A stretch of 64,000 nucleotides of DNA from Dehalococcoidia bacterium (GCA_965204905.1 OZ242042.1:3382153-3446152); one strand, 5' to 3'. Counted from the stretch's first letter, positions 6,332 through 60,898 are shown. A program made the numbers and translations. The notes: a model not told the origin generated them from the sequence alone.

Positions 6332-7009
6332 CCGGAGGCCGAGCCATGACCACCGCCAAACCCAAGCTCCGCACCGGGACCCGCATGTCCCTGGACGAGT
6401 TCCTTGCCCTCGGCGAAACCGACGAGAGGCTGGAACTGTTTGACGGGGCCCTTTACCTTATGAGCACACCGACCAAAGACCACCAGTTTTTGATGAGGCA
6501 TATCGGGATACATTTCGAGGCATTTCTGGACGACTTCGACATACCACCTTATGAGGTGCATCACGATATAACCACCATTTTGTCTGAAGAATTACAGCGG
6601 GCGGTCGAACCGGATCTGGTGATCATCCTTGCCGGACGAGATGACGTCGGCGGAAGAATATATGTAGAAGGTGTGCCCGACATTGTGGTGGAAATCCTGT
6701 CCACCGACCGCAACCATGATCTGGTGTTCAAACGGCGGATTTACGCCGAAGCAGGCGTCCAGGAGTATTGGATTTTCGACCCGCGCAACAACACCGTGCT
6801 GCCGCTGGAGCTGCGCGGAAACGAGTACATAGAGCGTCCCACACTCACCGCCGCCGATACCCTCACCACGCCGCTGCTGCCCGGCCTGGCAATCCCGCTG
6901 GCCAGCATCTTCCACCACCGTCGCCGCCCGCCCCGGGACGAGTAGATGCGCCGGAGGCCGAGCCATGACCACCGCCAAACCCAAGCTCCGCACCGGGACC
7001 CGCATGTCC
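6332..7009 (+). repeat. 59-bp identical direct repeat (6332-6390 and 6951-7009) covering the RBS and first 15 codons of both Uma2 genes
   Basis: ccggaggccgagccatgaccaccgccaaacccaagctccgcaccgggacccgcatgtcc occurs at both positions. Confidence 0.9.
6346..6945 (+). CDS. Uma2 (DUF820) family PD-(D/E)XK endonuclease-like protein, copy 1
   Basis: LELFDGALY, EPDLV, PDIVVEILS and YAEAGVQEYWIFDP motifs. Confidence 0.9.
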   Translation: MTTAKPKLRTGTRMSLDEFLALGETDERLELFDGALYLMSTPTKDHQFLMRHIGIHFEAFLDDFDIPPYEVHHDITTILSEELQRAVEPDLVIILAGRDDVGGRIYVEGVPDIVVEILSTDRNHDLVFKRRIYAEAGVQEYWIFDPRNNTVLPLELRGNEYIERPTLTAADTLTTPLLPGLAIPLASIFHHRRRPPRDE

Positions 7010-7567
7010 GTCGATGAGTATCTCGCCTTGCCGGAGATCGACGAATACCGCTGGCTGGAACTCGACGACGGAGAACTCTACTTTATGCCCAGACCCAGGC
7101 GCGCCCACCAATTCGTGAAAGATGAACTGGTGGCGCATTTCAAAACCCTCCTGAACAACTCCACCACGCCATTGGCCGAAGTGTATAGCGAACTGGTCAT
7201 CATCATATCGCGGGAATCCGGCCGCATTTTGGTACCAGACTTGTCCATTTTCCTGCGTGCTCCCGGCGATACATCGGATATCAGCGCTCCGGGCAGGATC
7301 CCCGACATCGTGATCGAAATACTTTCCACCGACCGTAATCGCGACCTCGTGCGTAAGCGCCGACTCTACGCTGAAGCCGGCGTCCAGGAGTATTGGATTT
7401 TCGATCCGGTTAGCGACACCGTCTTTCCGCTGGAATTACGTGGCGATACATATGTCGAACATCCCACACTTACCGTCGGAGACACGCTCACCACTCCCCG
7501 CCTGCCGGGCCTGGCGATACCGCTAGCCGATCTGTTCCACCACCGCCAGCGTCCTGGGGACGGATAA
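6965..7567 (+). CDS. Uma2 (DUF820) family endonuclease-like protein, copy 2
   Basis: VPDLSIF, PDIVIEILS, YAEAGVQEYWIFDP; tandem paralogue of 6346-6945. Confidence 0.9.
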   Translation: MTTAKPKLRTGTRMSVDEYLALPEIDEYRWLELDDGELYFMPRPRRAHQFVKDELVAHFKTLLNNSTTPLAEVYSELVIIISRESGRILVPDLSIFLRAPGDTSDISAPGRIPDIVIEILSTDRNRDLVRKRRLYAEAGVQEYWIFDPVSDTVFPLELRGDTYVEHPTLTVGDTLTTPRLPGLAIPLADLFHHRQRPGDG

Positions 7568-8662: not shown

Positions 8663-8690
8663 GTAGGGGCGAGGCATGCCTCGCCCCTAC
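8663..8690. repeat. REP-like perfect palindrome, GTAGGGGCG...CGCCCCTAC family
   Basis: gtaggggcgaggca|tgcctcgcccctac is a perfect 28-bp palindrome; relatives at 25243 and 28862. Confidence 0.85.
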
Positions 8691-9764
8691 CGCATTGCCA
8701 ATTCCCCAACCGTGTCAACGCCTCCGGAAACTGCGGCCCTCACGCCAGGCGGACGGGTCCGTTTGGCCCGAGAGAACCTGTGCTTGGCGATGGCCTTGTA
8801 CGCAGCGTCCCACCGGGGTCTGATCACCGCCACTCTCGTGCCCAACCGCGCGGAACTCAACCTCGAAAGCGGGCAGACATTCGACTCCAGCGTCCCGCTC
8901 CAGGTGACGGACCATCGATCCCTGCTGCGCACCACCGGAAACCAGGTCAGGGGCGCTTTCGCCCTGCTGGCGATGCAAACACAGCGCGAGGCCGAAACCG
9001 TGTTCGGCCCCGTTTCACACGTTCCCCCATTCGCCATTGACCAGCCGGACATCGATCTCTGGAATGCCCGTGCGGCCACATATTTGATCGCCCAGAGCGT
9101 GGCCCTGGACCTGATGGCCCCCACCTGGCGCATACCTCCCGAATTCCGCCAAAGCTACGCCATTCCAGATATGGACTTTGCGCTGGACGCCGCCAGCCTG
9201 CACGGGGAGGAAATTCGCTGGGGACACTTCGGCAGTTTGGCGCGCTACCTCGACCTTTCCCTGTTCGTTTCGTACTGTCTCGACGACATCGACATCTCGG
9301 TCGCATTGCAGGCGTCATCTGGAAATTATGGGTTGCTGGGACTGCTGGCGGAACATTTCTCACGGGAAATACCGTCTGCGAGTCCCATCAGCGACGTCGG
9401 CGGCTACGGCAGCGGGTCCGGCCGGCTGCGCCCCTCTGGATCAGTGGCAGCAGACGTTGGCAGCGACGCCCCCGCTGGCTGGATCGCCCCGGACGGCCCG
9501 CTCGAACCGCGCATTACAGTGGCATCCCAGGCCACCGAAATGGGGCCCGTCGATGAATTCGTAGCCGACGCCTGCTCAACCGGGTCCAGGGCTATGAACC
9601 TCGCCGGCGACCTCTACACTTCCTACGCCAACTGGTGCCTTGACCACGGATACCTCGCCCACAGCCAGCGCAAATTCGGCCTCGAACTCCGGGCACGAGG
9701 CTACCAACGTAAGCGTCGCGGCAAGGGGCGCCACTGGTGGATCGGCGTGGAATCCCGCATTTGA
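8676..9764 (+). CDS. Hypothetical protein with a C-terminal P4/D5-primase-type winged-helix domain
   Basis: C-terminus VDEFVADAC...DLYTSYANWCLDHGY...SQRKFGLELRARGYQRKR resembles the C-terminal domain of phage/plasmid primase-helicases. The tracked ATG lies inside the REP, so GTG 8712 is a more likely start. Confidence 0.65.
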   Translation: MPRPYRIANSPTVSTPPETAALTPGGRVRLARENLCLAMALYAASHRGLITATLVPNRAELNLESGQTFDSSVPLQVTDHRSLLRTTGNQVRGAFALLAMQTQREAETVFGPVSHVPPFAIDQPDIDLWNARAATYLIAQSVALDLMAPTWRIPPEFRQSYAIPDMDFALDAASLHGEEIRWGHFGSLARYLDLSLFVSYCLDDIDISVALQASSGNYGLLGLLAEHFSREIPSASPISDVGGYGSGSGRLRPSGSVAADVGSDAPAGWIAPDGPLEPRITVASQATEMGPVDEFVADACSTGSRAMNLAGDLYTSYANWCLDHGYLAHSQRKFGLELRARGYQRKRRGKGRHWWIGVESRI

Positions 9765-9778
9765 CGGCGCTCAGTTTG

Positions 9779-9832
9779 GTTACACAAACGTAACATTGGC
9801 GCAAAACCCGCGTAACACCCCCTCTTCATAAT
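9779..9832 (+). promoter_or_regulatory. Candidate promoter with 11-bp-periodic GTNAC boxes and a -10-like cataat
   Basis: GTTAC-N6-GTAAC-N6-GCAAA-N6-GTAAC at 9779-9816; cataat at 9827-9832. Confidence 0.45.
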
Positions 9833-9885
9833 CTGCTCCATCGAAACGGGCGCTCTCGCCCAATCACCATTGGAGACAGATTGAA

Positions 9886-10035
9886 ATGCTTGCCATAGCC
9901 GCCGGCGCCGCCTTTGTCGGATTGTTCGCTCTCTGGGTTATCGTCCCCCGGTTCATCCTGCGCCGCAACCGAAACGAACCCAACCTTATGGCAATCGTGC
10001 CCCAGGAAGAATTCGCTCCGCAGGCCGCTGATTAG
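9886..10035 (+). CDS. Small single-pass membrane peptide A (49 aa), not in the ORF track
   Basis: MLAIAAGAAFVGLFALWVIVPRFILRRNRNEPNLMAIVPQEEFAPQAAD; RBS ggag; paralogous to 10095-10256. Confidence 0.8.
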   Translation: MLAIAAGAAFVGLFALWVIVPRFILRRNRNEPNLMAIVPQEEFAPQAAD

Positions 10036-10094
10036 CAGCCAATCCCCTGCTACCTGCCAACTAACCATCCAATTACAACGGAGAAACGCCAATC

Positions 10095-10256
10095 ATGCTT
10101 CCCATCGCCGCCGCTGCCGCTTTCGTAGGACTCTTCGCGCTCTGGGTACTCGTGCCCCGGTTCTTCATCCGTCGCAAGCAGGATGAAAACACCGCCGCAG
10201 CGCCGATGCGCCACGAGGACGCGACCGCCCAGCCGGCGCCGTCCCCCGCAGACTAA
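10095..10256 (+). CDS. Small single-pass membrane peptide B (53 aa), not in the ORF track
   Basis: MLPIAAAAAFVGLFALWVLVPRFFIRRKQDENTAAAPMRHEDATAQPAPSPAD; RBS ggag; differences from peptide A in the TM segment are largely at third codon positions. Confidence 0.8.
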   Translation: MLPIAAAAAFVGLFALWVLVPRFFIRRKQDENTAAAPMRHEDATAQPAPSPAD

Positions 10257-10295
10257 GCGCAGCCGGCCCCGCGCCGGCAGACATCGAACCGGACG

Positions 10296-10325
10296 ATCCG
10301 GGGAGAATGAACTCCCCGGATTTTT
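10296..10325 (+). terminator. Rho-independent terminator
   Basis: ATCCGGGGAG-aatgaa-CTCCCCGGAT 10-bp stem followed by a T run. Confidence 0.8.
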
Positions 10326-10412
10326 CATGTCGCCTTCCGCCTTGTGCTCGCCCCTTGATTGATATAATGAACGCTACTTACGCGAGCAAAGCGAGGTGCT
10401 GAACTTACTCCT

Positions 10413-17755: not shown

Positions 17756-18778
17756 CTAGGCTGAAGCGGCAGCACCCACCGTCTCGATGATCAGCCGGGT
17801 CACAGTGTAGGGGTCGCAGTTGGCGTTGGGCCGGCGGTCTTCGATGTAGCCCTTGCCGTCCCGCGCCACCTGCCACGGAATCCGCACCGAGGCGCCCCGG
17901 TCGGACACACCGTAGCGGAATTCGCGGTAGGAGCAAGTCTCGTGCAGGCCGGTCAGCCGCTCCTCAATCCGGTCGCCGTAGTTGGCGATGTGCAGGTCGT
18001 GGCGGGTCTGGAGCGCCTCGGCGGCGGCCACGCAGGCGTCGTAGTCTTCCCGCATCCGGTTGGTGGAGAAGTTGGTGTGCGCCCCGGCGCCGTTCCAGTC
18101 GCCCTTGACGGGTTTGGGGTCCAGCGTGGCGCTGATGCCCCGGCGACCGTCAACGGTTAAAACGTCCTCGCCGATGCGGTACAGCAGCCAGCGGGCCAGC
18201 CAGAGGTGGTCGCCCACCGCCGGCGCGCCGATGGGCCCGATCTGGAATTCCCACTGGGCCGGCATGACCTCGCCGTTGATTCCGGAGAACTCCAATCCGG
18301 CGTACAGGCAGGCGTCCATGTGCTGCTCCACCACCGGCCGACCGAACACTTCGTCGGAACCCACGCCGCAGTAGTATCCGCCCTGGGGCGCGGGGAAACC
18401 GTTGTCCGGCCAGCCCAGCGGCTTGATGCCGTCAAAGAAGGTGTATTCCTGCTCGATGCCGAACCAGAAGTCGAGGGAGGCGTGCTGTTCAGCCGCCGCT
18501 GCGCAGGCCGCCCGGGTGTTGGAGGGGTGCGGCGTCATGTCGGTGAGCAGCACTTCGCACATGACCAGCTTGTGGTTGCCGCCGCGAATCGGGTCGGGAA
18601 CCGTAAGCACCGGGCTCAGCACGCAGTCCGAGTTTTCGCCGGGCGCCTGGTTGGTGCTGGAGCCGTCGAAGCCCCAGATGGGCGGCGCCTCGCCGTCAGG
18701 CACAATCTTCGCCTTGGACCGCATCTTCGCCGTCGGCTGCTGTCCGTCAATCCAAATGTATTCCGCCTTGTAACTCAT
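17756..18778 (-). CDS. glnII: Glutamine synthetase type II
   Basis: AEYIWIDG, WGFDGSST, FGIEQEY, QWEFQIG, DWNGAGAHTNFS and YIEDRRPNANCDPY; 340 aa, GSII length. Confidence 0.92.
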   Translation of the reverse strand: MSYKAEYIWIDGQQPTAKMRSKAKIVPDGEAPPIWGFDGSSTNQAPGENSDCVLSPVLTVPDPIRGGNHKLVMCEVLLTDMTPHPSNTRAACAAAAEQHASLDFWFGIEQEYTFFDGIKPLGWPDNGFPAPQGGYYCGVGSDEVFGRPVVEQHMDACLYAGLEFSGINGEVMPAQWEFQIGPIGAPAVGDHLWLARWLLYRIGEDVLTVDGRRGISATLDPKPVKGDWNGAGAHTNFSTNRMREDYDACVAAAEALQTRHDLHIANYGDRIEERLTGLHETCSYREFRYGVSDRGASVRIPWQVARDGKGYIEDRRPNANCDPYTVTRLIIETVGAAASA

Positions 18779-19022
18779 GGATCAAACCTCGAAATCCAGA
18801 TTTATTTAAGATTGTACCCCAACTTCCCTGCTAAAAGGTTTCATATTTATTTCAAACCGCGCCAAGACTCCCACGAAGCACGCAACTGCCGCGTGTCAAT
18901 CATACCGCAGCGGAAGATACGGCGTCCACCAAAGCACCATCGCGCAGCAGCGCTTCTCCCTTGCCGATTTTCCGCACGGTGGGCTATACTGATTCGCAGT
19001 TTTTTAGGCGGGCGTGAGCGTA

Positions 19023-60551: not shown

Positions 60552-60898
60552 GGCTGAAACTGATTGTAGCACTGGTCAACGACGATAAAACCGACGTCGT
60601 CGTGGATGCCGCGCGAGCCGGCGGCGCCACCGGCGCTACCATAATCAGCAGTGTGCGGGGCGAGGGATTGCGGCCGGGGAAAACATTCCTCGGTTTGCGC
60701 CTGGAGGAGATGCGGGACATGGCGTTGTTCCTGGTCCTCGAAACCCGCGCCCGAGACATCCTGGAGCGCATCCAGAACGCCGCAGGTCTCGATACCGAGC
60801 CCGGAGCCGGCATCGCATTCCAACTGGACATTGAAGACGCGGTTGGCCTCCTCACCCAACTGCCCACCATTCAGGAAGAACTGGAACACGACCTATGA
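60548..60898 (+). CDS. PII-like signal transduction protein
   Basis: AARAGGATGATII...RGEG...GAGIAFQLDIE; non-canonical T-loop. Confidence 0.8.
   Translation: MRLKLIVALVNDDKTDVVVDAARAGGATGATIISSVRGEGLRPGKTFLGLRLEEMRDMALFLVLETRARDILERIQNAAGLDTEPGAGIAFQLDIEDAVGLLTQLPTIQEELEHDL

Follow-up and report, generated by a model that had tools for sequence, protein, structure and literature searches.

Small membrane proteins that partner transporters are a known kind. KdpF with KdpABC, AcrZ with AcrB, MgtS, MgtR and MgtU with MgtA/B, as well as LucB, are all shorter than about 55 residues, cross the membrane as one helix, are encoded near or co-regulated with their transporter, and stabilise or tune it without being transporters themselves (PMC10710835). 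For the Amt channels, only PII/GlnK is given as a protein regulator in the same review; GlnK is a small, amt-linked nitrogen protein, a soluble trimer of 112-residue subunits that plugs the AmtB channel from the cytoplasm (PMC10710835). In the archaeon Methanosarcina mazei, a 61-residue protein of the nitrogen response, sP36, binds AmtB1 and mediates its inhibition; sP36 is cytoplasmic, goes to the membrane after an ammonium upshift and acts in concert with GlnK1 (PMC10714827). On the side of gene control, the actinobacterial GlnR regulon (amtB, glnA, glnII, nas) depends on an OmpR-family regulator with an atypical receiver domain and on a cis-element of four 5-nt sites (gTnAc / GaAAC, core GTAAC), six bases apart, which reaches the −35 region of the promoters of amt and related genes and is bound by four GlnR protomers at the amtB promoter (PMC10235972).

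Here, we describe a cassette of two small genes, pep1 and pep2, in a 64,000-nt stretch of DNA from a Dehalococcoidia genome (the window). Like the transporter partners listed above, the products are short (49 and 53 residues), have a single helix, and are linked to or co-regulated with a transporter. Unlike them, they have no sequence relationship to KdpF or the others, as no Pfam or NCBIfam model matched, the KdpF models PF09604 and TIGR02115 included. We considered KdpF itself and rejected it, both because there was no profile match and because there is no kdpFABC operon: the neighbours in the window are different genes, and those in relatives are amt and glutamine synthetase (GS) genes. The candidate partner also differs, in that no membrane microprotein partner is given for Amt in the review of small transporter proteins (PMC10710835). 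Compared with GlnK, it is the microprotein genes that occupy the slot next to amt in the amt loci, and the peptide is a membrane helix without similarity to PII. Compared with sP36 as described, the family consists of integral membrane helices and belongs to Chloroflexota.

Results

Organization of the pep1-pep2 cassette

The first gene, pep1 (9886-10035, + strand), is an ORF for a 49-residue microprotein, MLAIAAGAAFVGLFALWVIVPRFILRRNRNEPNLMAIVPQEEFAPQAAD, and the second, pep2 (10095-10256, + strand), is an ORF for a 53-residue paralogue, MLPIAAAAAFVGLFALWVLVPRFFIRRKQDENTAAAPMRHEDATAQPAPSPAD. Both are preceded by a GGAG ribosome-binding site (RBS; 9872-9875 for pep1 and 10080-10083 for pep2, + strand) at a distance of 10-13 nt from the ATG, and a "ggaga" RBS is conserved 8-12 nt 5' of the ATG in the orthologues of the genus. 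The two products share 56% identity across 48 residues (BLASTP E = 1e-16), and their genes are the sole copies in the 4.2-Mb genome. Pep1 is hydrophobic to about residue 20 and has a basic RR at residues 26-27; a variable linker then leads to the acidic C-terminus, EEFAPQAAD, which is conserved. Pep2 has the same helix, an RRK patch, and a tail that ends in PSPAD. With the family alignment as input, AlphaFold2 predicted a single helix at residues 2-27 (pLDDT 84-93) and a disordered tail. By the positive-inside rule, the side of the membrane on which a basic patch lies is the cytoplasmic one. Since the patch follows the helix, the N-terminus is predicted to be outside and the tail in the cytoplasm.

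Both genes are under purifying selection. In pairwise comparisons among 21 orthologues of the genus, dN/dS was 0.61 in the linker, compared with 0.11 over codons 1-27 and 0.07 over the final eight (E[ED]FAPQAAD); the value was 0.16 between pep1 and pep2, and 0.20 across other genera. Over codons 1-27, pep1 and pep2 differ with a pS of 0.47 and a pN of 0.11. Variation in the first 27 codons affects 23 of the 27 third positions, compared with 11 first and 6 second positions. One to four tandem copies, with start codon and RBS kept, are present in 35 of the 36 genomes of the genus, and pep2 is 81-96% identical in nine related genomes. We conclude that pep1 and pep2 are, almost certainly, real genes.

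Upstream of pep1 lies an operator that resembles GlnR boxes, GTTACA / GTAACA / GCAAAA / GTAACA (9779-9817, + strand), with boxes starting at 9779, 9790, 9801 and 9812, that is, with an 11-nt period. The −10 element, "cataat" (9827-9832, + strand), follows 9 nt 3' of the last box. When the 170 nt that precede pep1 were aligned, this block, of pattern GTTACA-n5-GTAACA-n5-GCAAAA-n5-GTAACA, 9 nt, cATAaT, proved near-invariant in all 21 genus loci, the −10 column being conserved as cATAaT/gATAcT. Transcription presumably starts near 9839. Between the −10 element and the RBS, a small 5'-UTR hairpin, GGGCG-ctct-CGCCC (9848-9861, + strand), keeps its GGGC...GCCC stem in the genus alignment while the loop varies. 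No full −35/−10 promoter was found at the cassette by a simple sigma-70 scan, which fits an activator-dependent promoter. At the other end is an intrinsic terminator (10295-10326, + strand; hairpin at 10295-10322) with an 11-bp stem, seven pairs of which are G-C, a 6-nt loop and a T-run. Related loci almost always show an equivalent hairpin and T-run behind the final peptide gene, including those where the next gene is amt or GS. In the window, pep2 has no box operator of its own and is separated from pep1 by only 59 nt, suggesting that the two genes are co-transcribed as one unit; in some relatives a second copy has its own box block, where the spacer is long. A scan for Rfam families returned nothing relevant, and no glutamine riboswitch, in the cassette or in four nitrogen islands.

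A preliminary description of this DNA, made from the sequence alone, had placed here two paralogous ORFs with ggag sites, with differences that are largely synonymous, a cataat −10-like element and a terminator. All of these are borne out by the features above. The promoter-like region that it noted is indeed the cassette's own promoter; what it missed is the four-box operator of GlnR type, common to the amt genes (see below). It also called the operon unannotated, which is true in so far as both ORFs fell below the cutoff of its own track, but pep1 and pep2 are present in NCBI and ENA as gene calls without names.

A family of small membrane proteins in Chloroflexota

When the order was searched with a profile built from the genus peptides, 81 of its 301 sampled genomes, belonging to 34 of 128 genera, had relatives. 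Within the same taxonomic family, the proteins from other genera are of 27-35 residues, with one of 59, and are encoded in one to four tandem copies, nearly all with an RBS; the consensus of these short forms is ME.I.AG.AF.GLF.LWV.LP.K.L.KK. Other orders of Dehalococcoidia have forms of 29-52 residues, in which acidic tails are frequent, and members were also found in nine genomes from other classes of Chloroflexota. Overall, the family ranges from 25 to 59 residues and is single-pass. When 1.84 billion representative proteins were searched exhaustively with a profile, 108 clusters (at 50% identity) matched with E <= 1e-3, almost all of them of 27-80 residues; the rare longer database proteins P0122, P0091 and P0090 look like read-throughs or false positives. 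As judged by these profile matches, the family spans SAR202/Dehalococcoidia and other Chloroflexota classes.

No Pfam or NCBIfam model matched pep1 or pep2 at E <= 1, or five short relatives at E <= 5. The sub-threshold hits in these databases (MPN207a accessory protein, Synerg-CTERM, DUF2970 and ICE pilin-like protein) were discarded as noise, and a derivation of the peptide from Amt or GS, or a fusion to either, was rejected, there being no similarity. Searches of the literature by exact sequence and by keyword gave no published account of the family. Although transporter partners of this size and topology are a known kind, the peptide family, its proposed partner and its regulon in Chloroflexota are undescribed. 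A small-protein family under selection at the protein level and outside any named family had been put forward at the outset, and conservation in relatives had been set beforehand as one of the points on which that idea could fail, along with a match to a described small-protein family. Conservation was found, in 35 of 36 genomes of the genus and 81 of 301 of the order, and no Pfam, NCBIfam or Rfam family matched. The family is therefore real, but its phylum-wide reach and its tie to amt and glutamine synthetase loci had been missed.

Linkage of the peptide genes to amt and glutamine synthetase genes

Outside the genus, an amt gene lies 120-565 nt from the peptide genes, on the same strand, in 19 of 20 loci, and a GS gene is found downstream of the peptide in 16 of the 20. 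The usual island reads amt (~450 aa), peptide gene(s), amt (~405 aa), GS (~334 aa, which we take to be type II, glnII) and glnA (445 aa), sometimes with gltB next. In L113-L118 a GS gene is located 112-300 nt downstream of the peptide gene, and L118 has GS without amt. An amt gene is present within 1.5 kb in 9 of 11 loci from other orders, and the two best loci from other classes show the same link. The transporter that adjoins the peptide in these other orders and classes is always of the Amt484 type (55-60% identity to the amt518 query, as against 30-39% for the Amt406 type).

A further element was seen in L102, L103 and L105-L108, which represent several genera. There, a conserved hairpin, AGTCCATACT...AGTATGGGCT, followed by TTT, is found between the boxed peptide gene and amt405, and the amt405 behind it lacks a strong box site itself. 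This hairpin could function in attenuation or processing.

The arrangement in the genus is different, as none of 21 loci has amt or GS within 6 kb. In the window genome, amt484, amt406 and glnA occupy C1:3363740-3369280 (amt484 itself C1:3367826-3369280, its likely start being the ATG at L146 6187), and the cassette lies some 23 kb downstream of them; there are no peptide copies between amt484 and amt406. The gene found between them, on the opposite strand, is by eye presumably an Uma2 gene (C1:3366958-3367581; L146 3959-4582, + strand), and it sits at the slot held by the peptide genes in other genera. Two further Uma2 genes are located 2-3 kb upstream of the cassette (window 6346-6945 and 6965-7567). 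The cassette may have been relocated by recombination between copies of Uma2. A 334-residue GS, again taken to be type II, encoded at window 17777-18781 (− strand), 85% identical to the GS that follows amt405 in relatives, lies away from the amt-glnA cluster, as the cassette does. The usual bacterial arrangement is an amtB-glnK pair. Two PII matches were found in this genome, a clear one (98 bits) at C1:1724810-1725133 (− strand) and a weak one (38 bits) at window 60557-60847 (+ strand), neither of which adjoins amt.

Within the genus, 19 of 20 loci have the same gene directly before the cassette, for a 362-residue protein (8676-9764, + strand), with downstream genes that depend on the species. 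The last 50-70 residues of this protein (~287-359) weakly match the C-terminal region of P4-primase / Pox_D5 (E of 0.001-0.01) and the rest has no match; the gene is missing from the peptide loci of other genera. Besides it, the neighbours in the window code for a Zn-dependent alcohol dehydrogenase, Uma2, HyuA/B and a PIG-L protein. The downstream genes of the genus loci (HyuA, a hydrolase-like gene and others) are all behind the strong terminator. Genes for immunity, export or modification were searched for near the cassette and none was found.

Co-occurrence of the peptide with an Amt484-type channel

We searched the same sample of 301 genomes of the order with Amt484. The results were bimodal, with orthologues at 56% identity or above (E <= 1e-120 where the match was full-length) and other Amt paralogues at 40-51%. 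Among the 73 genomes that have an orthologue of the Amt484 type, 72 gave a peptide match, as did 9 of the 228 others (Fisher p = 4e-58 with phylogeny ignored, a value that overstates independence because of shared ancestry and because peptide and amt usually form one locus). Three of the nine peptide matches without the Amt484 type are inside long ORFs, and three are in genomes less than 85% complete. Conversely, G057, of the same order, has an Amt484-type orthologue (65% identity) and no detected peptide. Detection of a 27-residue peptide is incomplete, and absences are therefore soft. The genus of the window genome keeps both the Amt484 type and the peptide, though the loci are separated.

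A probable nitrogen-type promoter and candidate regulators

Both strands of the genome, and shuffled sequence for comparison, were scored for the boxes alone (maximum score, 24). The pep1 operator scored 24/24. Only two sites in the genome, and none in shuffled sequence, scored at least 20. The second site (score 20) is 151 nt upstream of amt406, and the amt406 promoter has a TAnnnT hexamer at the same 9-nt spacing as at pep1. Upstream of amt484 there are five phased, weaker boxes, again with the 9-nt spacing to a TAnnnT hexamer. In the 20 loci outside the genus, boxes precede almost every peptide cassette as well as the first amt. The box-only score had replaced a 40-column weight matrix derived from the orthologous promoters, which was overfitted and found only itself; a strict regular expression of the genus motif was also abandoned, as it missed relatives in which alignment shows the same architecture with TTAACA and GtAAAa variants.

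Weaker GTAAC/GCAAC boxes with 11-nt phasing are also present at C1:174131-174190 (+ strand), 48-70 nt upstream of the gene for a 709-residue protein with an N-terminus resembling a molybdopterin oxidoreductase of the assimilatory nitrate-reductase type. Judging by these boxes, the gene is likely a further member of the regulon of pep1 and pep2.

When read against the actinobacterial consensus, the pep1 operator becomes GTTAC-n6-GTAAC-n6-GCAAA-n6-GTAAC (9779-9816), with both the geometry and the core of the GlnR element. We found 14 Trans_reg_C matches in the genome. Two OmpR-family proteins (224 and 233 residues) with degenerate receiver domains have the GlnR structures 8HIG, 8HIH and 8HML as their best PDB matches (E = 2e-33 and 1e-26); these GlnR-like regulators are encoded at C1:3003311-3004200 (233 residues) and C1:4066531-4066755 (224 residues). 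In their receiver domains the acidic pocket is replaced, for example by VLLLGDGWD. In the recognition helix of both, GGTRTVDVHIRRLR, the equivalents of R186, T187, V190, H191, R193, R194 and R196, the GlnR residues that contact the GTAAC site (PMC10235972), are all identical, whereas RegX3 and the ordinary response regulators of the genome differ at these contact positions. Box-like sites 167 nt upstream of the gene for the 233-residue protein suggest that this gene is autoregulated. No paper that links GlnR to Dehalococcoidia was found in the literature searched.

The operator design is common to the cassette and to both amt genes, which suggests that the peptides are part of a nitrogen-limitation regulon, and we consider it probable, from the boxes and the regulators that could read them, that this regulon is GlnR-like. 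By analogy with Actinobacteria, one of the GlnR-like proteins would be the one that binds the boxes, and it would act as an activator. The likeness to the actinobacterial regulon extends to the four GTAAC-core sites that reach the −35 region and to a regulator with an atypical receiver. The regulon described here differs in belonging to Chloroflexota and in including a microprotein gene, which was not previously described as a GlnR target.

Discussion

Based on promoter type, linkage and co-occurrence, we propose that pep1 and pep2 code for nitrogen-regulated membrane microproteins that act on the Amt484-type channel, and we assign to this reading a probability of about 0.6. Under nitrogen limitation, the cassette would be induced alongside the amt genes, through the predicted binding of a GlnR-like regulator of the OmpR family to four GTWACA boxes that overlap the −35 region. 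The peptide would then insert in the membrane beside the Amt484-type channel, with its helix at about residues 2-27, its N-terminus outside and its basic patch and disordered acidic tail inside the cell, and is predicted to modulate the assembly, stability or gating of the channel. Since the cassette of the genus is about 23 kb from amt, the peptide would act in trans. This separation from amt, with an unrelated 362-residue gene as the steady neighbour, counts against the proposal. That the peptide interacts with Amt is something we infer from where its genes lie, and the gene context fits both a peptide that binds Amt and one with another useful role under nitrogen limitation. Regulation of a transporter had been one of the functions suggested in the preliminary description, and the amt linkage and the co-occurrence favour it; regulation of a kinase or of a respiratory complex, suggested alongside, finds no support in the gene context.

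It is also conceivable, though we hold this more specific version only tentatively, that the Amt484-type channel has in the microprotein a subunit or regulator dedicated to it, a helix that is supplied in trans and packs on the Amt trimer. The end of the microprotein inside the cell, which is basic in the short forms and has an acidic tail here, would serve to control the channel or to bring in a factor from the cytoplasm. The microprotein would then hold the slot of the amt-linked GlnK, which is the regulatory slot in most other bacteria.

The strongest competitor of an action on Amt is that the peptides are nitrogen-regulated but have another target. They could tether or tune GS, provide feedback to a sensor or regulator, or adapt the membrane to starvation, with the acidic tail as a dock. 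Many loci have GS immediately after the peptide gene (at 112-300 nt in L113-L118, of which L118 lacks amt), which would be in line with a role of this sort, as would the strong purifying selection on the tail in the genus (dN/dS of 0.07) and the position of the cassette away from amt in the genus. However, both linkage and co-occurrence are tightest with a single Amt clade, and the peptide tracks the Amt484 type whereas GS is near-universal. Moreover, the 27-residue forms are essentially devoid of a cytoplasmic tail on which a soluble enzyme could dock. We regard a target other than Amt as a serious but distinctly less probable explanation.

Much less probable is a cis-acting role, in which the ORFs would be leader peptides that control read-through of the terminator into amt and glnA. 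This idea draws on several relatives in which the sole box promoter available to amt405 or GS is upstream of the peptide gene, with a hairpin and T-run in between, and on the conservation of the hairpin sequence across genera (L102, L103, L105-L108). In the genus, however, the cassette is not followed by any nitrogen-related gene, and what lies downstream varies by species. What selection preserves is the amino-acid sequence of a membrane helix, not a handful of regulatory codons; each tandem copy comes with its own promoter and terminator; and amt406 of the window genome has a box site of its own and no peptide gene before it. Thus, the terminator after the cassette, the lack of a nitrogen gene next to it in the genus and the selection on the helix all point to a trans-acting product rather than to a leader peptide.

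A slightly poorer account still is that the peptides damage membranes, as type I toxins or bacteriocins do, a possibility also raised by the preliminary description. Pep1 and pep2 resemble Hok, TisB, Ibs and Fst in size, in having one hydrophobic helix and in their basic residues, and they occur in tandem copies and belong to no named family. Type I toxins are typically strain-variable. The peptide genes, in contrast, are conserved across orders and throughout the phylum in one metabolic locus, under strong purifying selection, with a nitrogen-type activator promoter upstream and with no genes for immunity, export or modification nearby. There is also no antisense RNA signal: a consensus scan of both strands between 9500 and 10600, which is weak evidence, found no promoter-like site, and on the minus strand only a weak terminator-like hairpin inside pep2. 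We consider a toxin very improbable. Lastly, chance intergenic reading frames, for which only the small size of the ORFs speaks, are hardly credible given the paralogy, the presence in 35 of 36 genomes of the genus, the kept start codon and RBS, and a dN/dS of about 0.1.

Ammonium channels are among the best-studied transporters. If the microproteins act on the Amt484-type channel as we propose, a membrane microprotein tied to one Amt clade across a phylum would be a new type of partner for these channels, and a function would be provided for more than 100 nameless small-protein clusters in metagenomes. SAR202/Dehalococcoidia, which are uncultured, abound in the deep ocean and in sponges. The boxes described here suggest that control of the GlnR type, so far described in Actinobacteria, operates in these bacteria as well. 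Together with the GTAAC boxes, an action of the peptides on Amt would mean that nitrogen control in Chloroflexota combines a master regulator of the GlnR type with a membrane microprotein as effector.
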